Shown piece by piece: positions 1 to 12,694 of a DNA stretch of 12,694 bases (its first letter is position 1; each line of letters opens with the position of its first letter). Below the pieces are notes generated by a model, which made no database searches, was not told the DNA's origin, and saw nothing but the letters and a program-made list of their open reading frames with translations. This DNA comes from a virus (Duplodnaviria > Heunggongvirae > Uroviricota > Caudoviricetes), in the IMG/VR virus record IMGVR_UViG_2529293249_000016, positions 1-12,694 of that record, one strand, 5' to 3'. The position numbers and the translations under genes are program-made.

Positions 1-69
1 CACGCACTGTTTAACGAACCGCTGCAGGGCGAATCCGCCAATGCCAGCAATATTGTGGAGATTTTTTGA
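1..69 (+). CDS. 3' end of upstream gene, probably the terminase large subunit (P-like); partial, start lies outside the window
   Basis: Frame 1 is open from base 1 to a TGA at 67-69 that overlaps the portal ATG at 69-71 (TGATG). P2-family gene order places the terminase ATPase gene directly upstream of the portal gene. Frame 2 is also open to 80-82, so the frame choice is not certain. Confidence 0.35.
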   Translation, partial: HALFNEPLQGESANASNIVEIF

Positions 70-1094
70 TGGGAAAGAGTAAGAAGAACCGCGCTGCGGC
101 GACGAATCAGATCCAGCTTAAAAGTCAAACTACAGCCGAAGCATTCAGCTTCGGCGATCCCGTTCCTGTTCTGGACCGCCGAGAATTACTGGACTATGTG
201 GAATGCGTACAGATGGACCGTTGGTATGAGCCGCCCGTCAGCTTTGACGGACTGGCGCGCACCTTCCGCGCTGCCGTGCATCACAGTTCCCCGATTGCAG
301 TAAAGTGCAACATTCTGACCAGTACCTATATCCCTCACCCGCTGCTCAGCCAGCAGGCTTTTTCACGTTTTGTGCAGGACTACCTGGTATTTGGTAACGC
401 CTACCTGGAGAAACGCACGAACCGCTTCGGTGAAGTTATCGCCCTTGAGCCTGCGCTGGCAAAATACACCCGACGCGGGTTAGACCTGGATACCTACTGG
501 TTTGTGCAATACGGTATGACAACCCAGCCGTATCAGTTCACGAAAGGCAGCATTTTTCATCTGATGGAACCTGACATCAACCAGGAGATCTACGGCCTAC
601 CAGGTTATCTTTCTGCCATTCCGTCAGCCCTGCTCAACGAGTCCGCCACGCTGTTCCGCCGGAAGTATTACATTAACGGCAGCCATGCAGGCTTCATCAT
701 GTACATGACCGATGCCGCGCAGAACCAGGAGGATGTGAACAACCTCCGCAATGCGATGAAAAGCGCCAAAGGCCCTGGCAACTTCCGCAACCTGTTTATG
801 TACTCGCCTAACGGCAAAAAGGACGGGCTTCAGATCATCCCGTTGTCAGAAGTCGCGGCGAAGGATGAATTTCTGAACATCAAGAACGTCAGCCGTGATG
901 ACATGATGGCGGCACACCGCGTACCGCCTCAGATGATGGGAATTTTGCCGAATAATGTTGGGGGTTTTGGTGATGTGGAGAAGGCGAGCTGCGTCTTCGT
1001 AAGAAATGAACTATTACCACTTCAAAAAAGATTCATGGAAATAAACAGATGGCTTGGTCATGAAATTATAAATTTTGAAATATATACATTATAA
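69..1094 (+). CDS. Q: Phage portal protein, P2 gpQ-like
   Basis: ORF track 66..1094; the track start is a TTG, the first ATG is at 69 (MGKSKKNR...). Length of about 341 aa matches P2-family portal proteins and the position is next to the cos region. The last roughly 30 codons are conspicuously AT-rich compared with the rest of the gene. TAA stop at 1092-1094. Confidence 0.8.
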   Translation: MGKSKKNRAAATNQIQLKSQTTAEAFSFGDPVPVLDRRELLDYVECVQMDRWYEPPVSFDGLARTFRAAVHHSSPIAVKCNILTSTYIPHPLLSQQAFSRFVQDYLVFGNAYLEKRTNRFGEVIALEPALAKYTRRGLDLDTYWFVQYGMTTQPYQFTKGSIFHLMEPDINQEIYGLPGYLSAIPSALLNESATLFRRKYYINGSHAGFIMYMTDAAQNQEDVNNLRNAMKSAKGPGNFRNLFMYSPNGKKDGLQIIPLSEVAAKDEFLNIKNVSRDDMMAAHRVPPQMMGILPNNVGGFGDVEKASCVFVRNELLPLQKRFMEINRWLGHEIINFEIYTL

Positions 1095-1131
1095 AACCCA
1101 ACGGCATCACAATGATGCCGTTATGAACGAA

Positions 1132-2193
1132 TTAATATTCAAAATTATTTTCTTCAATAGAGAACTCAATCCCTCGGGATAACTTATCAATATTCACATC
1201 AAATGCGATATCTGTTAATTCACCATCCTCGATTTCATACATAACTTCAATTTCAATATCGAAACTAATCTCTTGAACTTCAGTTCGTGTGGTTGTCTCC
1301 ATTGGAATCATTACTTTATCTTCGCTATCCCAATACCCATTATTAAAGTCTGGACCAGAAACAGTAACTTCAAAATCTACAGAAACAGAGAAGGTCGCTA
1401 GACAATAATTATTGTCAATCTTAATTATTGATGGTTCAAAGTCATCAATATTGACGACTTCAAATGAATCCAATTCAGCGTCTTCCCAAGTTGAAACGTT
1501 ATATCCATCGGCATCATTGAGTTGGGCAATTACGTCCGCTCTTATGTCTTCACGTTTGCTTTCGATAAACTGCATCAATTTATTACTTAATTCGTTTGTA
1601 TGCGTATTGTATTCACCTAGAAACTTATCAAGTGAATCAATTTGATGAAGATTGTTTTTACCATCACAATAATTTTTTAAGTCACTATCCTCAGAAATGA
1701 TATACACATCTTCATCATTAACAAATCGCTCTACCGCAGCTAAATTGATTGCATCAGGAAACTCACTTTTTTTCTTATTTTGCCCAAATGGTGGTTCTTT
1801 GCCAAAGTATTTATCTAAAACCTCATTAAGATCTATCACTTCTATTGTAGCTAATTTGGCGTGACATCCTTTCAAAAAATCATCAAAAACTTTTTGTGCT
1901 GCTTCGTGAATTTCATGTTCGTTAAATTGCTGAAAAAAACCATGGAGCGGTCCATTATCAATACTATTCAAAAGCCTAGCTTTTCTTTGTACTGTGTTTA
2001 TAGCCTGCAGAGCATCCTTTATTGATTCCTCTATTTTACCTTTTACTTCTCTCTCTACAACTGTAGTTGTAATTAAGACTAAATCACCTTTCGCACATAA
2101 TTCATGGAAAGCTTTAAATGCTACCCCCTCAAAATGAAGACCAGCCTTTACGTACGTTTGTGTGTCAATAAATACCTTATTTGTTTTAAGCAT
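1132..2193 (-). CDS. AT-rich cargo protein of 353 aa with an N-terminal PIN-like domain (VFIDTQ start) and a very acidic C-terminal half; candidate anti-phage or toxin nuclease
   Basis: ATG at 2193 with AGGA about 7 nt upstream. N-terminus MLKTNKVFIDTQTYVKAGLHFEGVAFKAFHELCAKGDLVLITTTVVEREV resembles PIN-like nuclease folds (DUF4935-type); the C-terminus is D/E-rich. Strongly AT-rich and convergent with the portal gene, lying between portal and cos. Confidence 0.7.
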   Translation of the reverse strand: MLKTNKVFIDTQTYVKAGLHFEGVAFKAFHELCAKGDLVLITTTVVEREVKGKIEESIKDALQAINTVQRKARLLNSIDNGPLHGFFQQFNEHEIHEAAQKVFDDFLKGCHAKLATIEVIDLNEVLDKYFGKEPPFGQNKKKSEFPDAINLAAVERFVNDEDVYIISEDSDLKNYCDGKNNLHQIDSLDKFLGEYNTHTNELSNKLMQFIESKREDIRADVIAQLNDADGYNVSTWEDAELDSFEVVNIDDFEPSIIKIDNNYCLATFSVSVDFEVTVSGPDFNNGYWDSEDKVMIPMETTTRTEVQEISFDIEIEVMYEIEDGELTDIAFDVNIDKLSRGIEFSIEENNFEY

Positions 2194-2317
2194 ACTAATC
2201 CTAATAAGTTTTAAGATCCGCTACAATTGTTTATGTTTATTTTTTATCAATAATCATACGTAGTTAAGATTATCCATGTCGAAAAATTAAATCAACTTCA
2301 ATTTATCCTTAAGCGCG

Positions 2318-2339
2318 CGCTCGTATCCCCGCCACGCCT
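2318..2339 (-). other. Candidate cos cohesive-end site
   Basis: The reverse complement of 2318-2339 reads GGCGTGGCGGGGATACGAG..., which matches the first 13 nt of the P2/186-type 19-nt cohesive end (GGCGAGGCGGGGAAAGCAC in P2) as I recall it. The location next to the portal/terminase genes fits. Confidence 0.45.
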
Positions 2340-2387
2340 GCCCGCTTTATGTAGTGGTTTTCATGCAGGTGCATGATCTACGCAAAA

Positions 2388-2407
2388 GCCCGCCAGTTCT
2401 GGCGGGC
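2388..2407 (-). terminator. GC-rich hairpin (GCCCGCCAG / CTGGCGGGC) followed by TTTT on the - strand; possible terminator or cos-region structure
   Basis: Inverted repeat gcccgccagttctggcgggc; on the - strand it is followed by TTTTGCG. Confidence 0.3.
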
Positions 2408-2680
2408 CTTAGCAAAAACGATCCTCAAACGATCATGCAATCTCATGCAGCATAGACATGCACAGACGAGTAAAGCGAATCGGACCTTACGCAAGGTGAA
2501 CTCCTCAGCGGGCATAATCAGTATGTCGGAAGATCTCTAAAAATAAATAATTCGGTTAACAGGTATGCTTACAAAAGCATATATTTGATTAAAAATCATG
2601 TAAGGGGGAGGATCTCAAACTGAATCGCCACGGGTTTTACAAATTTCGATAGTCTCTCTAACGTTTCGGCTGAGGTCAAA

Positions 2681-3106
2681 ATGAAAAGCTTTTACGTATT
2701 AATTTTAATTCTGGTTGCAAGCTTTGTTAGCGTCCCAGTTCAGGCGGTAACAGCTAAAAACTATGAGAAAGGAACTAAAGCTCAACAGAAATCAATATCT
2801 TACCTTTCATGTGCATTCTATGGCAGTAGCACACAATTAGATCCTAGCTACACGGAGCAAGTACCTACAGCCGATATCAAGATATTACAGAAAGCAGCTT
2901 ACCACGCTTACAACGATGCGCTCTCATACTTTGGCTATGAGGAACCAGATCACGAACAACGCATAATTGATTATGCTGAATTTGTGGCGTCGCAAGAAGC
3001 TGTGTTATGGGATAAGCCGGGAATGAATGGAAAGCAGGTAACACTAATTGCTCGTTCTCTCTACAATGAGAGTAACTGTAACTTGTTACTGGACTCAATT
3101 AAGTAG
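2681..3106 (+). CDS. Small secreted or periplasmic protein (141 aa) with an N-terminal signal peptide; AT-rich moron of unknown function
   Basis: ATG at 2681 with GAGG 5-8 nt upstream. N-terminus MKSFYVLILILVASFVSVPVQA-VTAK has a hydrophobic core and an AXA-like cleavage site. AT-rich and located between cos and the tum-like operon. Confidence 0.65.
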   Translation: MKSFYVLILILVASFVSVPVQAVTAKNYEKGTKAQQKSISYLSCAFYGSSTQLDPSYTEQVPTADIKILQKAAYHAYNDALSYFGYEEPDHEQRIIDYAEFVASQEAVLWDKPGMNGKQVTLIARSLYNESNCNLLLDSIK

Positions 3107-3265
3107 GAAAAAGATGGTATTTTGCCCGTAGTTTCAACCTTAATCTCCGAACCTGTCGCAGAACGGGCGTTCACTCATCAAATAAACGCCACACCTAACG
3201 CCTCACTGTACTCGTTGTTCAACCTTGCTGACGCCAGAACCAAGTTCAGACGCCAGCAACTTTTC

Positions 3266-3499
3266 TTAATGCAGCCAGCTGTCGTCTTCCCACACCTTCT
3301 GCATAATCTTCATCACTTGTTTTCTTTCTTCGTCCAGTTGCAGTCCGGTCAGTTCCACACCGTTAGAGCTACCTTTGCGGATGCGAATTACCATTTTGGG
3401 ATACAGGGGGCGCAGATTGCGGTAAAGCTCGGATTCAAGGGCGTCCAGGGTAGACTGGCTAATCTTCTGCTCTTTATCGATCATTATTTCAATGCGCAT
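3266..3499 (-). CDS. DinI-family protein (77 aa), SOS-regulated; corresponds to the DinI-like C-terminal part of 186 Tum
   Basis: Internal ATG at 3499 gives MRIEIMIDKEQ...WEDDSWLH, which follows the DinI pattern (MRIEV...WE..D.W). GAGGTG lies about 8 nt upstream and overlaps the stop of the preceding ORF. Confidence 0.7.
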   Translation of the reverse strand: MRIEIMIDKEQKISQSTLDALESELYRNLRPLYPKMVIRIRKGSSNGVELTGLQLDEERKQVMKIMQKVWEDDSWLH

Positions 3500-3509
3500 A
3501 AAGGTCACC

Positions 3510-3698
3510 TCAGCTGATGACATCCATTGAGCGGTTGTATTCGTGGGTTCTGATTTTTGCCATGAGTTCATCAGTCAATTCAGAAACCCACTGCAGAGCC
3601 AGCCCCTTCTCTTCATCACTACACTCACTAGCCGCTACAAGCTTAAGAAAAAAATCAATGCGCTGGAGCTTCAAAGACTCCAAAAAATAGTCCTGCAT
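3510..3698 (-). CDS. Small protein (62 aa), first gene after the LexA box; candidate Tum-like antirepressor N-terminal module
   Basis: ATG at 3698 with a perfect AGGAGG 5-6 nt upstream. It lies about 43 bp downstream of a CTGT-N8-ACAG LexA box and directly upstream of the DinI-like ORF in a different frame. Confidence 0.55.
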   Translation of the reverse strand: MQDYFLESLKLQRIDFFLKLVAASECSDEEKGLALQWVSELTDELMAKIRTHEYNRSMDVIS

Positions 3699-3740
3699 CT
3701 TTCCTCCTATGACACCAAAGTAATACTGTATATATAACCA

Positions 3741-3756
3741 CTGTTTATATTTACAG
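3741..3756 (-). promoter_or_regulatory. LexA (SOS) box CTGT-N8-ACAG in the promoter region of the tum-like/DinI-like operon
   Basis: + strand ctgtttatatttacag (3741-3756) fits the LexA consensus CTGT-(AT-rich)8-ACAG; an adjacent half-site TACTGTATATATAA sits at 3724-3737. A candidate TTTACA -35 lies upstream on the - strand. Confidence 0.6.
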
Positions 3757-3771
3757 TATATAATAATCTTA

Positions 3772-3800
3772 CTGATGTAAAACGTTTTTTTACGTTCATC
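3772..3800 (-). terminator. Imperfect hairpin downstream of the A gene; possible early-operon terminator
   Basis: CTGATG...CATCAG inverted repeat enclosing AAAACGTTTTTTT, about 50 nt beyond the A stop codon. Weak call. Confidence 0.25.
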
Positions 3801-3850
3801 AGCCTGAAATGCCTGGTATTATTAAGAGCACGAATTGTTAACCCGCGTAA

Positions 3851-6265
3851 TTAATACAGGTTCCGCCACTTATCATCTTCCTGCAAACGCTGGTTCCGAT
3901 AGAAGATACGCAGGCCTGCTCCTGACGGAATACTGCCGCCGCGAAGGAGTAAATCGACCTCTTTCTCGCTGCCATCAAATCCTCTGGACTTCAGTTCATA
4001 GACGAGCTGCTGTCGCTGATGGTCTGTAATTCGCTGTTTGTAGTCTTTACGCCGTTTCGGTTTCACCAGGCGTAACCTTGCAGCCAGTTCCCGGCGCTCT
4101 TTTTTGCTCATACTGTGCAGGTATTCGTGCAACTCCTTGTCATCCATGCGGGTAATGTCCGTTCTGGTATCCCCATCAGCTGATTTGTCTTTCCCTTGTT
4201 GGTTCAAATTTTCAGCAAGGGGACAGTTATTGCCACGAGTCCAAGGGGCGCAAGCGCCCTGGTCGGCTGCCGCCTCCTGAACGTCAACGGCTTTACGAAC
4301 CATTTTCCACTTTACTGCATGAGTGCAGATCTTGCCCTCTGCAATGGGTGACCAGATGCCATAAATACGAATGCCGTGATCGCCATAGGCGGTCGGCTCT
4401 TCGTTGATTTCATAAGCGGTTCTGATGAGGTGATATTTACGGGGAACCAGTACGCCGCCCTGCTTCATGATGTAGGTGGCAAAACAACCAGCATCAGCAG
4501 CAGCCAGAATGGCATCAAGACGCGGGTTATCCAGTACCGGCGCACCTGCTTTTTTGTCACCCTGTTGCCTTGCCGCCTGACCAGCCAGCAAGCGAAGTTC
4601 ACGGTAAGCCTGACGCCCCGGAATACCAAAGAAGCGGAATTGCTGAACACGATGCAGAGACGCCCAGGCATTCACGTATTCAGCGTTATCACGCAGAGAT
4701 TTACCCGTTTCCTTGCTGATCTCGCCAGCCAGACCACGACCGTCAATGTTCTTACTGATATATTTCGCGATGTAGCTTGTCGGCGTTCCTTTGCGCGGGT
4801 TAATCAACTCAGACTTAAAGCGCGGCCCAGTGTTATTGCCCAGCTCCTCGCGGTCTTCACGGATGGCAAATTTACGCAGTAATGCAGTGATGGCACGGCG
4901 GTCTTTTTTGCGCATGAAACACAACAGGTGCCAGTGAACTGTGCCATCATGATGCGGCTCAGCCACCCGCACGCCATACCAGCGCAACCCGGCTTTGTGC
5001 ATCGCCTTACGAAATGCAGCAAACATGCCGACCAGATAATTGCTGCTTTGTCTTACCGTCGCGTTTGTCCAGGTCGGGTTTGGTCTGCCGTTATTTAGCG
5101 TGGAATGGAAACGCGACGGACAGGTGATAGTGTAGAAAACGGCGCAGTCACCGCGCATTTCCGCGATAAGCTCCAGACCTTTAACACAGGCCATCATCTC
5201 ATTGCGGCGATGCGCAGGGTTGCTGCTGCTGGCGTTTACCACATCCTCCATGTCCAGCGTGTCGCCGTCTTCGTTCACCAGTTCATGAGAACGGAAAAAC
5301 TCCAGCGACTTACGGCGCTGCTCACGTTTATGCATCACGGCTTCATAGCTGACATAAGGAGATGCTTTTTTGCTGACCAGGCAAACAGCGCGCAACTGCT
5401 CTTCCCGCCATTCGCAACGCATCTTCCATAATTTCCGATACCACCAGTCGGCGCACAACATACGCGCCAGCGAACCCGGAATGAGTTCATAGGGCACGGG
5501 TTTACGGCGGTTTCTTTTCCGACGGAGTTGCTCAAACGCAGGTGGGATGACATCCAGACGCAGGGTTTCCGCTGCCACCTTTTCCCATGTCTTGCGGATT
5601 TCTTCTGGCTTAACGTCATCGGTGGCATACAAATCACCACAAGCTGCATCAAGGCACATACTCATATGCGCAGCTACCAGGGTGGACAGGCGTTTCACCT
5701 GATCCTGACTCATTTCAGGCAGGATCAGCAGGCCGTCCAGCCCTTCATGGCTTGCCATAAAGCGAAAAGATGCAGATAGCTGACTGTCGCGTACATGCTC
5801 CAGTCGTTCCAGACATGGCTTAATCGTCTCACGTAAATAGCGGGAATAAGCCTTTGGCCTGCCCAGGCTGCTGAAGTATTCAATACGTTGCATCAGCGGC
5901 TTGCTGATATGGGAAGGCTGGGCGTTGACGTCCGCCAGAATGACCATGTCTGAATTAAAACGCTGCTGCTCATGCGCCAGCTTTGCCCGGCTAATGAGCT
6001 TATCCTGCTCCATTTCGCGCTGGACAGGATCACGTGATTCATTAAAGAAATAACGCTCCCAGACCTGATCACTCAGTGCCTCGCGGCGCAACTGTTCCTG
6101 CTCGTTATCGGCAGCGTACAGAGTGATCAGGTTTGAAAGCGTAGAAACCGGCGCAACTTCCGCCGGGTCCAGATAAGGGTTAATGGCCTTTTTCGGGCTG
6201 TTCCATGAGAATGCTGCGGCAGCCTCGTTAAAGCCGCAGCAGTTGTTCATATCGGCATGACTCAT
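3851..6265 (-). CDS. A: Rolling-circle replication initiation endonuclease, P2/186 gpA family (804 aa)
   Basis: Large ORF at the expected position in the early operon. Contains the tyrosine-rich active-site-like motif [11 protein letters not shown] characteristic of A-type initiators. Its ATG (6263-6265) overlaps the Dam stop (ATGA). Confidence 0.85.
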
Positions 6266-7119
6266 GCACGTACTCCGTACACGGCAGAACTATCCACGCC
6301 ACGCGAATAATCAAATCCCATCCAGCAGCGCGGCCCGGAAACAGCAATGATTTCTGTTGCTGATTTACCCTCGCCAGCTGCCACACCGATGCTGCGTTTT
6401 ACCTTGATATAGTGGTGAGTAAAATTGCGATACAGCGAACGGATCAGGGATGTGTCACTGTTAGAAACAATGACCGGATGTCCTTCTGATGACCGATGTT
6501 CAAGAACGGATGCCAGGTGATACTGGTCATCTTCAGTGAAACCATCAGTGTGATAGCCGGAAAACGTACCGTCATATGGCGGATCGCAATACACCACATC
6601 TCCCGCCTTCAACATCGCCAGCGTTTCATCAAAGCTGGCGCAGATAAACGTTGCTCGCTGGGCTTTTTCTGCAAATGTGCGAAGTTCTTTTTCAGGGAAA
6701 TACGGATTTTTATAATTACCGTAGGGAATGTTGAAATGCCCGCTCTTGTTATAGCGACATAAACCACGGTAACCGTGACGATTGAGATACAGGAAATATA
6801 CCGCTTTCATGAAATCAGTAATTTCAGTTGAGCAGTTAAACTCCTGCCTTATGTTGTAATAAGCCACCTCCCTGTTTGCGATCTCAAATAAAACTCTGGC
6901 GCGAGATATAAACGATTCACAATCAGCGGCAACCTTTTTATAGAGGTTGATTAAATCAGGATTAATATCCGCAACCAGATAGCTGTGATAATCCGTTTCC
7001 ATCATCACAGCACAGGAACCCGCGAAAGGTTCAACCAGTCGCGGGCCAGCAGGAAGGTATTTTTTCAGTTCTGGCATAATGGCGGTTTTATTTCCCGCCC
7101 ATTTCAGGATGGTGCTCAT
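6262..7119 (-). CDS. dam: DNA adenine methyltransferase, Dam-like (D12 class N6-MTase)
   Basis: Internal ATG at 7119 ([11 protein letters not shown]...) preceded by GGAGG. Motifs EPFAGS (AdoMet binding) and DPPY (catalytic) are present. The track ORF extends upstream from a non-optimal start; I place the start at 7119. Confidence 0.8.
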
Positions 7120-7343
7120 ACAGCACCTCCGTTGTAATGTTTGCCTTTCAGTTCTGCGATTTCCTGACAGGTAATGCAAAGCTGCACTCCCGGAATGGCG
7201 CGGCGTCGTGCTGGCGGAATTGGCGCTTCACATTCAATGCAAAGTACGCGTGACACGCCCGGTGATTTGGCACGGGCTGCACGGATATGGCGCTGGCGTT
7301 CTTCTTCAACGCGCTGCTGTACGAGATCCATTGCATCAGCCAT
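7116..7343 (-). CDS. TraR/DksA-family C4 zinc-finger protein (75 aa)
   Basis: CIEC-x17-CITC zinc-finger spacing typical of the TraR/DksA family. Stop overlaps the dam start (ATGA) and start overlaps the upstream stop (TAATG), indicating translational coupling. Confidence 0.7.
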   Translation of the reverse strand: MADAMDLVQQRVEEERQRHIRAARAKSPGVSRVLCIECEAPIPPARRRAIPGVQLCITCQEIAELKGKHYNGGAV

Positions 7344-7576
7344 TAGTGGATCTCCTGCGCTTCGTTCTGGATTGCTTCAGCAGTCACGCGCAGCAGTTCT
7401 GCCGCTTCCACGTGGTTTAGCTGGCGGGATGAGATATGACACGCCAGGCTATCAAGGCGAGCAGCCATTGCTTCAGCCCTTGCCCGGCGTTCTTCCAGAC
7501 GAGCCTCTGTCAGTAAAATATTAAGCCCTGCGTCATCCGGTCCGGTTTTAGTCGTGAGGGTTTCAATATTACGCAT
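7343..7576 (-). CDS. Hypothetical early-operon protein (about 77 aa)
   Basis: The track start at 7582 is a TTG; the first ATG is at 7576 with AGGAG about 9 nt upstream. No recognisable motif. Confidence 0.5.
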   Translation of the reverse strand: MRNIETLTTKTGPDDAGLNILLTEARLEERRARAEAMAARLDSLACHISSRQLNHVEAAELLRVTAEAIQNEAQEIH

Positions 7577-7643
7577 AATCAATTCTCCTGAATTTAGATA
7601 AAGGGATGCCCGGCGGGTTTACGCCATTAATTTCATTAGTTGG

Positions 7644-7985
7644 TTAATTCGGCATGGTTAGCCGTCTGGGAAATAAGCTCACCACTGCACGAAAATGATT
7701 CATTGCTTTAATCAGCTCCCGCTTTTCGTCAGTGGTCAGCTCATTAATGCTGATGCTATGACGTTCAGCTGGAATTTTTGCCATAAAGAATATGGCAGCC
7801 AGTGCCCGTTTATTTTGTTCATTATTGATATCCCGTGGATCACGCATATCTTTAATAAACCGCTCAAGCTCTGACTCAATATTCAGGCCAAAAACTTTCG
7901 CCCTTAACTCCGCAATGTGATTAAGTCCATTCAGGCGTTCACCGGGGCTTAATGGAACAGTTGCTGCAGCGCCATTAATTGCCAT
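7644..7985 (-). CDS. Hypothetical early-operon protein (113 aa)
   Basis: ATG at 7985 with GGGGGA about 9 nt upstream. Same strand and operon context as neighbours. Confidence 0.5.
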   Translation of the reverse strand: MAINGAAATVPLSPGERLNGLNHIAELRAKVFGLNIESELERFIKDMRDPRDINNEQNKRALAAIFFMAKIPAERHSISINELTTDEKRELIKAMNHFRAVVSLFPRRLTMPN

Positions 7986-8007
7986 ACTTCATATCCCCCA
8001 AACGCAG

Positions 8008-8232
8008 CTATCGTTCTTTGTTCTTACGGTAACGCTCAAGAGGAGATACATTTTTTCGTATCGTCTCTTTAACCTGCTCTCCCCGTAAAAACGTCCCATC
8101 CTTTAACGTGAAAAAGTAACTGCCATCGCCCGACAATGACGGATAGCAACAGAGCAAATCATCTTCAGGTACTGAATAACTCTCCCCTCTGTAACGAAAC
8201 TGATAAACCACTTCACTTTCTGCCGCATACAT
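8008..8232 (-). CDS. Hypothetical small protein (74 aa)
   Basis: ATG at 8232 with GGAG about 9 nt upstream. Overlaps the 3' part of the neighbouring ORF by about 130 nt in another frame, so one of the two may be over-extended. Confidence 0.45.
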   Translation of the reverse strand: MYAAESEVVYQFRYRGESYSVPEDDLLCCYPSLSGDGSYFFTLKDGTFLRGEQVKETIRKNVSPLERYRKNKER

Positions 8233-8399
8233 TTGGACTTTCTCCGTTTCCTCGTGGTCAATTCAGACAGCAATTCATCTTGTGAATGACATGGATGCCA
8301 GCGTTTTCCATCCTCACCCGTGATCCAGCCGTGACCGTAGTGCATTGCCGGGCTTTGTTTTACCAGCAGCGATGCAAATGATGGTTCTTTCGTCAGCAT
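8103..8399 (-). CDS. Hypothetical small protein directly downstream of cII (possibly Fil-like); true 3' end uncertain
   Basis: ATG at 8399 with GAGGTG overlapping the cII stop. Position corresponds to the fil/dhr region of 186. The track ORF starts further upstream (8432), which I reject as the start. Confidence 0.4.
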   Translation of the reverse strand: MLTKEPSFASLLVKQSPAMHYGHGWITGEDGKRWHPCHSQDELLSELTTRKRRKSKCMRQKVKWFISFVTEGRVIQYLKMICSVAIRHCRAMAVTFSR

Positions 8400-8406
8400 A
8401 AACACC

Positions 8407-8916
8407 TCACAGCAAACCGAATGAAGCACCAAGGCCAGTCATGGTATCAACTGCACTCGCCATCGCAGGATTAGCCTGTAAACGGGCTTGCAATGAAACA
8501 GCAGCCAGCGCCATCAGTCGTGTTACAGAGTTAATGCTGCTGATAGCATCACGACGACCGGCACTAGTTTTTACATCACCAGATACCGCACCTGCTGCAA
8601 CACGCCCGATCTCTGCAGTTGCGCTCATGACGTAATGCGGCAGTTTCTCTTTTGCTACCTCATTAATCGGTACACATGGCAGACAATGAATCTGTGCCAG
8701 AAAACCATCTACCAACGTTGAATCTTCAGTCAGATCGGTAAGCAGCCAGATTTCTGGTGCGGTTAATAAATGAGGTTGAGCTGGATTCAGCTTGTTCCGC
8801 AGAATCTGCACATTCATGCCCGCACGTTCTGCCAGTTGCACCAGATTGTGGCGCAGTGCGAATGCACGACAGGCTTCATCAAAATGTGGATGTTTGGAAA
8901 CTTGGTAATCAAACAT
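8407..8916 (-). CDS. cII: Phage CII-like transcriptional activator, 186 type (169 aa)
   Basis: Internal ATG at 8916 ([19 protein letters not shown]...) with GAGG about 9 nt upstream gives 169 aa, matching the length of 186 CII as I recall it. Sits directly after the apl-like gene in the lytic operon. Confidence 0.75.
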
Positions 8917-8948
8917 GGTCGACACCTCTGATGTATCCCAAAATGGAA

Positions 8949-9170
8949 CTAGTTGAATACAACATTGCAATCAGTAAGTGCATCAACGGTAAGAGCAGCA
9001 AGGTTGATCATTACCTTTTCTCTTTTCTTGTCTTTACGAAGACGATGCCGAGGAATGCGACCATCCGCCAACATATCGTTGATTGTGTCGATTGAAAGAC
9101 CAGTAAGTTCGCTATAACGCTCGATTGTGACGTGTGGCGTATTCAGAGTTATTGAAATGTTAGGGGTCAT
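8949..9170 (-). CDS. Apl/Cox-like excisionase and transcriptional regulator with an AlpA/Xis-type helix-turn-helix (73 aa)
   Basis: ATG at 9170 with AGGAG about 11 nt upstream. [26 protein letters not shown] is a typical AlpA/excisionase HTH. First gene of the rightward operon, divergent from cI. Confidence 0.6.
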
Positions 9171-9220
9171 GATGCAACATCTCCTATTGGCTTGTGGTGA
9201 GCCTGTAGTAATCGTGACAA

Positions 9221-9236
9221 GTACCCAATTGGGTAC
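9221..9236. promoter_or_regulatory. Perfect 16-bp palindrome GTACCCAATTGGGTAC in the cI/apl switch region; candidate operator
   Basis: Lies in the roughly 95-bp interval between the apl-like and cI starts. A direct copy of AAGTACCCAA recurs at 9278-9287, inside the cI 5' end. Confidence 0.4.
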
Positions 9237-9265
9237 AAAACTGATACTAGGATCGCAAAAGAGAT

Positions 9266-9862
9266 ATGTCAACATCAAAGTACCCAAGTGAGATCAAAAT
9301 AAATCCCAATAAAGGTGGTAAGGCTGCGATTGAGCGATTAGTCGAAGCCTATGGCTTTACGACACGACAGGCTTTAGCTGATCACTTGGAAGTATCAAAA
9401 AGCACACTAGCGAACAGGTATTTGCGGGATACATTTCCTGCTGACTGGATAATCCAATGTGCTCTTGAAACAGGAACCTCCCTCAAATGGTTAACTACCG
9501 GACAAGGCCTTAAGCAAAGCTCGCTGACAGCAGCTACAGAAGAGCTTGTTAAGTTTCGCCTTGCCGCAGGCAAAATGATTGAAGACGGTTCATATGTCTT
9601 CGATTCATCATTTCTTCCTGCAAACCTTTCATCACCAATTGTTGTTCAGGATGGACTCGTCACATACATTTGTGATCAAAAATTTTCTGAAGTACTTGAT
9701 GGAAACTGGTTAATCAATATCGACGGAACCTATTCCATTCGAAAAATCACAAGGCTTCCTAAAGGAATGATTAAAATTACAACAGCAGAGAATAGCTTTG
9801 AATGTGCATTTTCTGATATTGAAGTGGTTGCTTGTATAAGAAGTACAATAGTCTCGAATTAA
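9266..9862 (+). CDS. cI: Immunity repressor, 186 CI type (198 aa)
   Basis: ATG at 9266. N-terminal HTH region (RLVEAYGFTTRQALADHLEVSKSTLANRY...WLTTGQG) and a size close to the 192 aa of 186 CI. Divergent from the apl/cII operon and upstream of int. Confidence 0.75.
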   Translation: MSTSKYPSEIKINPNKGGKAAIERLVEAYGFTTRQALADHLEVSKSTLANRYLRDTFPADWIIQCALETGTSLKWLTTGQGLKQSSLTAATEELVKFRLAAGKMIEDGSYVFDSSFLPANLSSPIVVQDGLVTYICDQKFSEVLDGNWLINIDGTYSIRKITRLPKGMIKITTAENSFECAFSDIEVVACIRSTIVSN

Positions 9863-9882
9863 TATAGTAAAAGGATTTTAAA

Positions 9883-11559
9883 ATGAATTCATTTGCCATC
9901 GTTATACTCTTATTAGCATTTCTCGCCCCTGTTCTAGCTGTAATATTATTTAAACAAAGTAAAAAACACAAAGCGGCTATAGATAACCTGACAGCTAACA
10001 ACATAGCCCTTTCTAACCAACTGATTGAAAATCAAGAAAAACTAGCACAGACCGCACGAGAATTATCAGAGCTTGAAGGGCGAGCAGCACCATTGTGGCA
10101 ATACGAAGAATTGCACAGCGCAGTAATGGATGCAGAGAATAAGATAAAAAATGCGGACTCAATAGCCAAGCAAAAAATAGATGAAGCCCAAATTAAGGCG
10201 GCTAAAACAGTAAACGAAGCAAATTATCAAGCTCAGATGACAATAAGCAACGCTAATAGCGAAGCTATAGCAATCACCAAAGACGCTCGCGATGCACGCC
10301 TGAAAGCCAAAGAACGTCTTGATAATGCTAATAATAAAGCAAATGAGCTAATCTCAAATGCTAATGACAATGCAGTAAAAATTATTTCTGATGCAGAAGA
10401 AAGAGCAAAGGAGATTGCTGGTTCAGCATATGAAGCTAAAGAGTTTGCAGAAAAATATGAAGCAGTTGCAAAATCAATGAAAAATAAAATTGAAGGTTAT
10501 GGTGATGAATGGATCATCCCTAACCGTAGTGTACTTGATGAGCTGGCAGAAAATTATGAATTTACAGATGCAGGCAAGGAATTACAAAAAGCCAGAGAGT
10601 TAACCAAATCATTAATAAAAACTAATAAAGCTGCTTCGTGTGATTATGTTGAGCAAAACAGGCGTAATACTGCCATAAACTTTGTTTTGGATGCCTTCAA
10701 TGGAAGAGTTGACAGTATTTTATCAAAAGTCAAACACAACAATTTTGGAAAACTTTCCCAAGAAATAAAAGATGCATTTCAACTAGTAAATTACAATGGC
10801 TCTGCCTTTAGGTCCGCAAAAATAAGTGACATCTATCTTCAGGCAAGACTCAACGAGCTAAAATGGGGTGTAGCAGTTAATGAAATTATGCTCGAAGAAA
10901 AAGAAGAGCAAAGAAGGATTAAAGAACAGCTTCGTGAAGAGGAAAGAGCTCGTAGAGAATATGAAAAAGCGATAAAAGAAGCTGAAAAAGAAGAAAAAGC
11001 TATTCAGCAAGCTATAAATAAAGCAACGAAAGAACTTATGCTTGCAAATGAAGAACAACGCTTAGCTTTAGAGCAAAAAATAGCTGAACTACAGTTAAAA
11101 TATGAAGAAGCTGAAGCTAAAAATCAACGAGCTATTTCTATGGCTCAACAAACCAGATCAGGCCACGTCTATATCATTAGTAATATTGGTTCATTTGGCG
11201 AAGATGTATATAAAATTGGAATGACACGCCGCCTTGAACCACTTGATCGTGTTCGTGAACTCGGAGATGCTAGTGTTCCTTTTTCGTTCGATGTTCATGC
11301 GATGATTTATAGTGATGATGCACCATCATTAGAAAACCATCTGCATAAAGTTTTCAACGAAAAGCAGGTCAATAAAATTAACTCACGAAAAGAGTTTTTT
11401 AACGTAAATTTAAAAGAAATCAAATCAGTTATTGAAGACATGAACATCAACGCCCACTGGACAATGTTTGCAGAGGCGAAAGAATATAGAGAGTCTCTAT
11501 CTATTGAGCAGGAGCGCAAAGCAGCCACTTCCGCCAACGATGAACTACATGTTGCTTAG
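9883..11559 (+). CDS. AT-rich cargo protein of 558 aa: N-terminal transmembrane anchor, long K/E/A-rich coiled coil, C-terminal T5orf172 (GIY-YIG-like) domain; candidate anti-phage defence protein
   Basis: ATG at 9883 with AAGGA 7 nt upstream, 20 nt after the cI stop. Hydrophobic N-terminus FAIVILLLAFLAPVLAVILF. C-terminus GHVYIISN...YKIGMTRR...PFSF...RKEFFNV matches the T5orf172/Mug113 pattern. Inserted between cI and int, which are normally adjacent. Confidence 0.75.
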   Translation: MNSFAIVILLLAFLAPVLAVILFKQSKKHKAAIDNLTANNIALSNQLIENQEKLAQTARELSELEGRAAPLWQYEELHSAVMDAENKIKNADSIAKQKIDEAQIKAAKTVNEANYQAQMTISNANSEAIAITKDARDARLKAKERLDNANNKANELISNANDNAVKIISDAEERAKEIAGSAYEAKEFAEKYEAVAKSMKNKIEGYGDEWIIPNRSVLDELAENYEFTDAGKELQKARELTKSLIKTNKAASCDYVEQNRRNTAINFVLDAFNGRVDSILSKVKHNNFGKLSQEIKDAFQLVNYNGSAFRSAKISDIYLQARLNELKWGVAVNEIMLEEKEEQRRIKEQLREEERARREYEKAIKEAEKEEKAIQQAINKATKELMLANEEQRLALEQKIAELQLKYEEAEAKNQRAISMAQQTRSGHVYIISNIGSFGEDVYKIGMTRRLEPLDRVRELGDASVPFSFDVHAMIYSDDAPSLENHLHKVFNEKQVNKINSRKEFFNVNLKEIKSVIEDMNINAHWTMFAEAKEYRESLSIEQERKAATSANDELHVA

Positions 11560-11617
11560 CAATGTATGTTTCATAGTAATCACACATTGATTACTGGTTA
11601 CATATACAGTTAAATTT

Positions 11618-11641
11618 AGCCCTCTGATATGAGGGCTTTTT
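11618..11641 (+). terminator. Rho-independent terminator directly abutting the int start codon
   Basis: AGCCCTC-tgatat-GAGGGCT stem-loop followed by TTTTT, then the int ATG at 11642. Confidence 0.6.
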
Positions 11642-12694
11642 ATGGCAGTACGAAAACTAACCACAGGGAAATGGCTTTGCGAATGTTACCCCGCCGGACG
11701 AAGTGGGCGTCGTGTGCGTAAACAATTCGCTACCAAAGGCGAAGCACTGGCTTTTGAGCGCCACACGATGGAAGAAACCGAAGCAAAGCCCTGGCTGGGT
11801 GAATCAGTGGATCGTCGAACACTGAAAGACGTGGTTGAGCTATGGTTCAAACTACATGGTAAATCTCTGACAGCTGGGCAGCATGTCTATGACAAATTGC
11901 TGTTGATGGTTGACGCTCTGGGCAATCCTCTTGCAACCGATCTCACCTCTAAAATGTTTGCCCACTATCGAGATAAACGCCTGACAGGCGAGATCTACTT
12001 CAGCGAGAAATGGAAGAAAGGAGCAAGCCCGGTCACCATTAACCTGGAGCAAAGCTATCTAAGTAGTGTTTTTAGCGAACTATCCCGTCTGGGCGAATGG
12101 TCGTATCCGAACCCACTGGAGAACATGCGAAAATTCACCATCGCAGAAAAAGAGATGGCATGGCTTACCCATGAGCAGATTGTTGAATTGCTGGCTGATT
12201 GCAAACGTCAGGACCCAATTCTGGCACTGGTAGTTAAGATATGCTTAAGCACAGGCGCACGCTGGCGTGAAGCCGTAAATCTTACCCGCTCACAGGTGAC
12301 CAAATACCGAATTACCTTTGTCAGAACGAAGGGGAAGAAAAACAGAAGCATCCCTATCAGTAAAGAGCTTTACGAAGAGATCATGGCGCTTGATGGGTTC
12401 AATTTCTTCACAGACTGCTATTTTCAATTTTTATCCGTGATGGAAAAAACGTCTATCGTGCTCCCTCGCGGTCAACTCACACACGTTCTGCGCCATACGT
12501 TTGCGGCGCACTTCATGATGTCGGGTGGAAACATTCTGGCCTTACAAAAAATTCTCGGACACCACGATATAAAAATGACTATGCGTTACGCACATCTGGC
12601 ACCGGATCATCTAGAAACGGCGCTCCGTTTCAATCCTCTGGCAACGCTGCCAAGTGGCGACAAAGTGGCGGCAGCGGTTGGCATTACCCCGTAA
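11642..12694 (+). CDS. int: Tyrosine integrase, P2/186 Int family (350 aa)
   Basis: Catalytic-domain signature (ARWREA..., HVLRHTFAAHF, LGHHDIKMTMRYAHL carrying the R, H-x-x-R and Y residues). Position next to cI at the prophage end. TAA stop at the window end. Confidence 0.9.
   Translation: MAVRKLTTGKWLCECYPAGRSGRRVRKQFATKGEALAFERHTMEETEAKPWLGESVDRRTLKDVVELWFKLHGKSLTAGQHVYDKLLLMVDALGNPLATDLTSKMFAHYRDKRLTGEIYFSEKWKKGASPVTINLEQSYLSSVFSELSRLGEWSYPNPLENMRKFTIAEKEMAWLTHEQIVELLADCKRQDPILALVVKICLSTGARWREAVNLTRSQVTKYRITFVRTKGKKNRSIPISKELYEEIMALDGFNFFTDCYFQFLSVMEKTSIVLPRGQLTHVLRHTFAAHFMMSGGNILALQKILGHHDIKMTMRYAHLAPDHLETALRFNPLATLPSGDKVAAAVGITP

Follow-up and report, generated by a model that had tools for sequence, protein, structure and literature searches.

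A PIN_12 gene between the portal gene and cos

The stretch of DNA considered here (12,694 nt, hereafter the window; positions 1 to 12,694 of the IMG/VR record IMGVR_UViG_2529293249_000016, from a virus of the Caudoviricetes) covers the end of a P2-like prophage that holds its early and cargo genes. We focus on one of its genes, an open reading frame (ORF) of 353 amino acids (aa) which lies on the minus strand between the portal gene Q and the cos site, and whose product belongs to the PIN_12 family (PF16289, formerly DUF4935). We consider it reasonably likely that this ORF is a horizontally acquired "moron" of the prophage, which codes for a standalone anti-phage defence protein distantly related to Cosus. 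The features of the locus, in the coordinates of the window, are the following.

66 to 1094, plus strand: portal gene Q, 3' part (Pfam Phage_portal), left boundary of the insert
1099 to 1123, no strand assigned: inverted repeat, GC-rich, in the gap where the Q and PIN genes converge, with the look of a minus-strand terminator
1132 to 2193, minus strand: PIN_12/DUF4935-family ORF, complete, 353 aa, ATG start (ORF call, Pfam)
1639 to 2193, minus strand: N-terminal PIN domain, aa 1-185
1135 to 1638, minus strand: C-terminal acidic alpha+beta domain, aa 186-353
2253 to 2282, minus strand: sigma-70-like promoter match, TCGACA-18-TATGAT (consensus match only)
2313 to 2366, no strand assigned: conserved cos core, with the 19-nt cohesive-end sequence at 2320 to 2338; right boundary of the cargo insert

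The protein is identical or nearly so to WP_063106696 and WP_000920989, and the peptide segments quoted by the first-pass annotation, which was made from the sequence alone, are present in it. That annotation described the gene as AT-rich against a GC-balanced backbone, which is borne out by the G+C content (GC): 0.336 in the ORF and 0.330 over the insert as a whole (1095 to 2312), against 0.505 for Q and 0.529 for the replication gene gpA. The gene converges on Q and is oriented opposite to the late genes, as had been stated. The two genes have a common hairpin at 1099 to 1123, an 11-bp stem followed by a T-rich tail, which scores as a terminator on the minus strand. The promoter-like sequence is located 60 nt 5' of the ATG. 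The ATG is about 120 nt away from the cos core, and the stop codon 37 nt away from Q; neither the upstream nor the downstream interval contains a co-oriented ORF, so that the PIN gene is monocistronic.

The cos site was located by reading the sequence and aligning it to other P2-like phages. A block of 54 nt (2313 to 2366) is identical in the window, in the phages Cartapus and vB_EcoM-813R9 and in the prophage of E. coli 09-02E, four P2-like elements with different cargo, and the sequence to the left of this block varies with the cargo. Cartapus, whose linear genome ends there, has this block inside its annotated "putative cos site". On the reverse strand, positions 2320 to 2338 read GGCGTGGCGGGGATACGAG, a 19-mer that matches the P2/P4 cohesive-end consensus found in cos regions of the P4 type (Rousset 2022, Table S2); the exact P2 cos 19-mer, with up to three mismatches allowed, has no match in the window. 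Since Q and cos flank the gene on opposite sides, the earlier placement of the gene between portal and cos is correct. We set the left edge of the insert at the stop codon of Q, since the 3' ends of Q diverge between lineages; from this stop codon to cos, the gene amounts to an AT-rich insert of roughly 1.2 kb.

The N-terminal domain

The Pfam profile PF16289 matches residues 7-171 of the protein over model positions 1-171 of 172 (E=1.1e-25, 91.4 bits for a cutoff of 32), which confirms both the PIN-like N-terminus and the assignment to DUF4935 that the first-pass annotation had suggested. The model of the protein predicted with AlphaFold2 (predicted local distance difference test, pLDDT, 88; predicted template modelling score, pTM, 0.79) has the three-layer alpha/beta/alpha fold with a central parallel sheet which defines the PIN superfamily (VapC-like). 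In this model strand 1 is formed by the segment KVFI, with D10 next to it, and strand 2 by LVLIT. The four acidic residues expected to form the metal-binding active site of a PIN domain, D10, E49, D147 and D169 (plus D171), are each predicted where a strand ends or a helix begins, as they should be, and the alignment that had been proposed to identify them shows that they are kept in 83 homologs (39-56% identity). Conservation in these 83 sequences is complete, or at least 90%, at D10, T11, E49, the KKKxEFPD147A motif, S167, D169 and D171. The candidate catalytic residues are D10, T11, E49, D147, S167, D169 and D171. The N-terminal domain is thus a VapC-type PIN fold with the full conserved acidic set, and is probably an active nuclease.

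This assignment agrees with the published description of the PIN_12 family: proteins of about 350 residues, with a PIN domain of the VapC group that has four to five conserved active-site residues and a less conserved C-terminal alpha/beta region with no known homolog, encoded by usually monocistronic genes whose function was then unknown (Matelska 2017, PMC5499597). With 353 aa, the same domain layout in the model and a monocistronic gene, the ORF fits this description. The search of NCBIfam and PHROGs gave no significant match for it, the sequence-profile search of the PDB returned only chance matches to kinases (E>0.2), and among the viral structures of BFVD the sole look-alike is one full-length protein from a metagenomic siphovirus.

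Among solved structures, the nearest folds all belong to VapC toxins of toxin–antitoxin systems. It may be asked, then, whether the protein is a VapC-like PIN toxin fused to an acidic antitoxin acting in cis, which would stabilize the prophage or other mobile elements as an addiction module, by post-segregational killing or by growth arrest under stress, and would have no dedicated anti-phage role. We regard this as unlikely. Post-segregational killing normally needs a separate labile antitoxin gene, and there is none; the adjacent, co-transcribed small antitoxin gene of type II VapBC systems is absent from the PIN_12 locus, and an inhibitor that is covalently fused to the toxin cannot decay differentially. 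The protein also departs from VapC toxins such as VapC21 of M. tuberculosis (PDB 5sv2): no VapB antitoxin gene stands beside it, the sequence identity is just 10-18%, with no sequence-level match to any PDB chain, and it has long helical inserts (residues 44-109) and an extra C-terminal domain of 170 residues.

The acidic C-terminal domain

The C-terminal half was described from the start as unusually acidic, and indeed residues 186-353 contain 42 D+E for 10 K+R, which gives a net charge of -32 and an isoelectric point (pI) of 4.05. The predicted structure consists of two helices packed on a long curved antiparallel sheet, and the fold is, according to the model, of the NTF2/cystatin type. The motifs of this domain are YNxSxWED (231-238), GPDFNNG (280-286), D289, E291, E314, GI (341-342) and EE (347-348); in the 83 homologs, N232, S234, W236, E237, D238, G280-P281-D282, N285, D289, E291, E314, G341-I342 and E347-E348 are at least 90% conserved. 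An EF-hand-like reading of GPDFNNGxxDxED was considered and dropped, because the spacing departs from that of the canonical loop.

A profile of the C-terminal domain was searched against 1.84 billion representative proteins and gave 261 matches at E<=1e-3. In the 150 that were listed, nearly all the full-length proteins are about 350 aa long and match at about residues 187-355, while the shorter ones look like gene fragments. Among the matches listed, the domain therefore occurs only behind PIN_12 and has not been shuffled onto other effectors.

Such a charge and pI are within the range of known DNA-mimic proteins. It is conceivable that the gene serves the P2-like phage itself, during infection or induction, either by degrading the RNA of the host or of a competitor, or because the acidic domain acts as a nucleic-acid mimic against DNA-binding defence proteins of the host, in the manner of anti-restriction proteins of the Ocr and ArdA types. 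The position of the gene beside cos, where the packaged genome has its left end, would be compatible with this, and defence and anti-defence genes are known to occur together in the hotspots of mobile elements (PMC12629846). We nevertheless find a role in offence or counter-defence quite improbable. The gene reads against the direction of the late operon, points away from the early operon and has its own terminator, as do morons that are expressed in the lysogen; a pure mimic would not need the invariant acidic residues of the PIN domain, and a curved sheet of the NTF2/cystatin type is not a known DNA-mimic fold. Homologs are also found in chromosomal defence islands far from any phage, and the relatives Cosus and DS-5, described below, protect cells when they are expressed alone.

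Relatives with demonstrated defence activity

Cosus (Brc24) is a single PIN_12 protein, carried by a mobile integron, which confers complete resistance to T7; the substitutions T12A, D14A and D96A decrease the protection more than 1e5-fold (bioRxiv 10.1101/2024.07.02.601719). Its gene is located on plasmid pKAZ2 (KR827391, ALG87191.1, 382 aa). Like the ORF product, Cosus is a single protein of similar size (382 and 353 aa, respectively) with an N-terminal PIN_12 domain (Pfam E=2e-36 for Cosus, 1e-25 for the ORF), the KKxEFPDA and S-x-D motifs, and an alpha/beta C-terminal half in which the WED motif is common to both; it has no partner gene and is the cargo of a mobile element. Cosus has been suggested to form hexamers. 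BLASTP aligns Brc24 to residues 2-216 of the ORF product with 30% identity (235 aligned residues, E=4e-18) and pairs D14 with D10, D153 (in EFPDA) with D147, and D177 (in SQD) with D169. The comparison of our profile to Cosus with hhalign (99% probability) covers residues 3-300, across the WED and G-x-DF motifs of the C-terminal domain. The two proteins differ in that Cosus is in a class 1 integron cassette with attC, whereas the ORF is in a prophage slot, and in that the C-terminal half of the latter is much more acidic. They also belong to separate subfamilies: the best 120 matches of the Cosus clade show 72-100% identity, which makes it a tight group, and the ORF protein is outside it.

Some proteins of the Cosus clade (P0365, P0369, P0375 and P0382, 462-467 aa) have an N-terminal cold-shock domain (PF00313), which is a hint that the target is single-stranded RNA or DNA.

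The second relative is DS-5 of DefensePredictor, a validated two-gene defence system (WP_021513008 and WP_021513009) whose PIN_12 protein, WP_021513009 (376 aa), loses its defence activity upon mutation of the catalytic residues; it also requires a DUF5830/AcrIF4-like partner, and the pair was explicitly judged to be unlike a toxin–antitoxin pair (Science 2026, PMC13092281). According to Table S5A of Rousset 2022, the DS-5 pair is found in the same A-to-Q hotspot of P2-like phages as our ORF. The two PIN_12 proteins are only distantly related, with 23% identity over 200 aa and an hhalign probability of 94% for the N-terminal domain only; the alignment ends at about residue 230 and the C-terminal domains are not detectably related. 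A tblastn search of the window with the DS-5 partner (WP_021513008) found none (best E=0.46), and the neighbours of the ORF are Q and cos. P0377, a member of the Cosus clade from E. coli, was considered as the DS-5 PIN protein and ruled out, since its context is not P2.

These precedents bear on whether the family could act in addiction. Strong expression of Cosus has an 11% fitness cost, and Cosus was hard to establish in P. aeruginosa (bioRxiv 10.1101/2024.07.02.601719), which speaks for such a role. Against this, both PIN_12 proteins that have been tested protected against phage, and DS-5 was judged not to be a toxin–antitoxin system. By analogy with these relatives, the subfamily of the ORF would also have a role in defence. 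The family, the locus and the literature on Cosus/Brc24 and DS-5 all support the proposal of the first-pass annotation that the ORF is a single-gene candidate defence nuclease. The search with PADLOC that was to accompany it gave no match for the ORF with version 2; this result is uninformative, because PADLOC v2 also misses Cosus.

Several observations weigh against the reading of the ORF as a Cosus-like defence gene. The identity to Cosus is low, and the profile of the C-terminal domain alone is no more than suggestive (hhalign 58%, E=1e-4). In Cosus itself, only three of the 11 point mutants (T12A, D14A and D96A) were reported to be strongly defective, and about 100-fold protection remains; no loss is reported in the text for D153A or D177A, the counterparts of the invariant D147 and D169; and an escape mutation maps to the tail protein gp12, from which the authors suggest a second, injection-linked activity (bioRxiv 10.1101/2024.07.02.601719). 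A purely PIN-catalytic mechanism is thus not established even in Cosus, and the catalytic model is the best available but is not secure. The systems tested in the tables of Rousset 2022 do not include the one that contains our ORF (system 97, see below). Last, the promoter match upstream of the ORF is not above chance, with 9 such sites in the region for 6.9 expected from shuffled sequences.

Distribution of the family and cargo slots

The interval between gpA and gpQ of P2-like phages, adjacent to cos, is a published anti-phage hotspot (Rousset 2022, PMC9122126); the first-pass annotation was right to point to it, and the hotspot is defined as the whole A-to-Q interval. Table S5 of that study lists WP_063106696, WP_000920990 and WP_000920989 as system 97, "PIN_12", with 33 loci. 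A search of papers for the RefSeq accessions found nothing. This very protein is therefore already catalogued in the P2 hotspot. Single-protein PIN_12 defence nucleases in the cargo slots of mobile elements are by now a known kind.

Of 5426 complete E. coli genomes, 36 have the PIN_12 gene, each in one chromosomal copy and with at least 99.6% identity. In all six prophages examined it occupies the same slot between Q and cos, while the neighbour across cos is either none, the 141-aa protein found in the window, DUF2971, an HNH endonuclease or a DUF6236 protein, so that the PIN_12 gene travels as an independent unit. The same slot contains, in the same orientation, a DUF4145 gene in Cartapus (2013 to 2711) and a Hypoth_Ymh gene in vB_EcoM-813R9 (2056 to 3207). 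The niche resembles that of the P2 genes old and tin, which also lie between gpA and gpQ near cos, have the AT-rich composition of foreign DNA and are likely to be exclusion genes expressed in the lysogen. The proteins are unrelated, Old being an ATPase-TOPRIM nuclease and Tin a poison of the single-stranded-DNA-binding protein, and on the P2 map old and tin are on the A side of cos, whereas the PIN_12 gene is on the Q side. The slot between Q and cos thus appears to be a cargo-exchange site of its own, distinct from the old/tin side. Validated defence genes alternate in the slots that the gene occupies, which is a further point against addiction.

More distant relatives were sought in 5.8 billion proteins and 158 were found. 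Those listed are full-length, mostly 352-358 aa, with 38-56% identity, and come from Pantoea, Salmonella, Serratia, Vibrio, Photobacterium, Aeromonas, Pseudomonas, Halomonas, Pseudoalteromonas and one Desulfobacterota genome. The contexts of the homologs are as follows.

Pantoea, P2/186-like prophage (54% identity): same slot near the portal gene, beside an RmrA-type gene
Vibrio coralliirubri (44%): island interrupting thyA, adjoining Gabija (GajA E=1e-261, GajB E=4e-209)
Pseudomonas (43-44%): mobilisable island
Salmonella, integrative and conjugative element (ICE) (41%): near Septu (PtuA E=3e-138, PtuB E=1e-70)
Vibrio splendidus (41%): serine-recombinase island with an HEPN_AbiU2 protein and gop-beta-cII components
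Enterobacter phage ENT4, 4995 to 6059 (41%): in the orf30 slot of P2, with gpS and gpV on either side in the opposite orientation
IncF/IncC-type plasmids (25%): PIN_12 gene abutting an AbiH gene

The position of the ENT4 homolog in the S-V slot shows that the family has been captured at two cargo slots of P2-like phages. This spread is what is expected of a defence gene that moves between the cargo slots of mobile elements and defence islands. Of the 86 plasmids that match, 57 are conjugative, and the family is also found on ICEs and mobilisable islands; this would also suit a gene that stabilizes its carrier.

On plasmid pSC138, the PIN_12 gene (4995 to 6095) is followed, 1 nt apart, by an AbiH-family gene (6097 to 7056, Pfam E=9e-65). 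Such PIN_12-AbiH plasmids are many, in E. coli, Salmonella, Shigella, Klebsiella and Proteus, and the two genes could form a two-gene unit.

The rarity of the gene in E. coli (36 of 5426 genomes), together with the fact that it has no known phenotype, leads one to consider that it is inert or decaying cargo, a PIN-fold nucleic-acid binder that has no selected function in this host and hitch-hikes in a recombination-prone slot; some PIN-like families, such as Utp23 and SMG5, are indeed inactive binders (Matelska 2017, PMC5499597). This is very improbable. The frame is intact, and the protein is conserved over its full length at 39-56% identity across Enterobacterales, Vibrio, Pseudomonas, Aeromonas, Halomonas and a Desulfobacterota genome, with all candidate catalytic residues and about 20 residues of the C-terminal domain invariant or nearly so. 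This pattern points to purifying selection on both domains. The three alternatives, addiction, offence and inert cargo, are each less well supported than a role in defence.

Prophage context

The other features of the window are listed below.

2681 to 3106, plus strand: 141-aa protein, on the A side of cos (phrog_7437)
3851 to 6265, minus strand: replication gene A, gpA (Pfam Phage_GPA, E=2.5e-127)
6262 to 7179, minus strand: Dam-type DNA adenine methylase of the early operon, overlapping with the end of gpA (GC 0.46)
9883 to 11559, plus strand: 558-aa PD-Lambda-1 protein (PADLOC PD-Lambda-1 models, E=3e-120)

The 141-aa protein has a signal-peptide-like N-terminus, MKSFYVLILILVASFVSVPVQA, and its gene has a GC of 0.40. 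It matches phrog_7437 (E=4e-99), whose function is unknown, and has no match in Pfam, NCBIfam or PADLOC; in other prophages its slot is taken by the DUF2971, HNH or DUF6236 gene mentioned above, or is empty. A DinI-like gene and a small conserved ORF lie between the gene of the 141-aa protein and replication gene A. The GC of the methylase gene is below that of gpA. After the methylase come the rest of the early operon, a C-type repressor (9266 to 9862), the PD-Lambda-1 protein and the integrase (from 11642).

The PD-Lambda-1 protein, encoded between the repressor and the integrase, contains DUF4041 and T5orf172/MUG113 (GIY-YIG-type) domains, and its gene has a GC of 0.37. Its match to the PADLOC models shows that the same prophage has a recognised defence gene in a second cargo locus.

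A region of E. coli LR-25 is nearly identical to the window (99.8% over 2.9 kb), and the ORF is labelled there by RefSeq as "PIN domain-containing protein", WP_063106696. In this closest genomic match, the LR-25 prophage contains the gene of an ISVsa5 (IS4-family) transposase at 802 to 2010, between the terminase and portal genes, so that this copy of the prophage is probably defective. The window begins inside Q and does not cover the place where LR-25 has ISVsa5.

Proposed mechanism and significance

If the ORF is a defence gene, as we favour, the following mechanism may be proposed. The gene is laid out as its own transcription unit: the ORF stands between a promoter-like site and a terminator hairpin, and it runs against the late operon. 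It would be expressed in the lysogen, like old, tin and fun of P2. The N-terminal domain, whose fold and conserved residues are those of the VapC type, would act as a metal-dependent PIN nuclease. As there is no antitoxin or partner gene, the nuclease would have to be restrained in cis, most plausibly by oligomerisation or by the family-specific acidic C-terminal domain, which is a candidate for an autoinhibitory, a sensing or an oligomerisation role. Judging from Cosus and DS-5, infection by a competing phage may relieve this restraint. The released nuclease would then cut RNA (tRNA, rRNA or mRNA, like VapC enzymes) or the nucleic acid of the phage, which would block phage multiplication and protect the lysogen together with its prophage, as the same two systems suggest.

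A more speculative idea, which we hold to be improbable, is that the C-terminal domain is a new kind of built-in immune switch, for instance a plug that mimics nucleic acid and holds the PIN active site shut. A nucleic-acid-binding protein of the phage, or the end of its injected genome, would then pull the domain off the active site. If so, a single polypeptide would be both sensor and effector, with no antitoxin, and this would explain why escape from Cosus maps to the tail protein gp12 and not to a replication protein.

If the ORF proves to be protective, it would add a third, quite divergent branch of PIN_12/DUF4935 to the defence nucleases, a family of proteins of about 355 aa spread across gammaproteobacterial mobile elements. 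The short slot between Q and cos would itself be a swap site for single-gene immunity cargo, here alongside PD-Lambda-1. In practice the gain is a modest one: the profiles used for defence annotation should include the gene, since PADLOC v2 misses both the ORF and Cosus. The protein would also be a compact, partner-free model of how a VapC-type nuclease stays silent and is then triggered in cis, in a class that includes Cosus and DS-3. Its chief interest lies in the C-terminal domain and in the control of a VapC-type nuclease that has no antitoxin.

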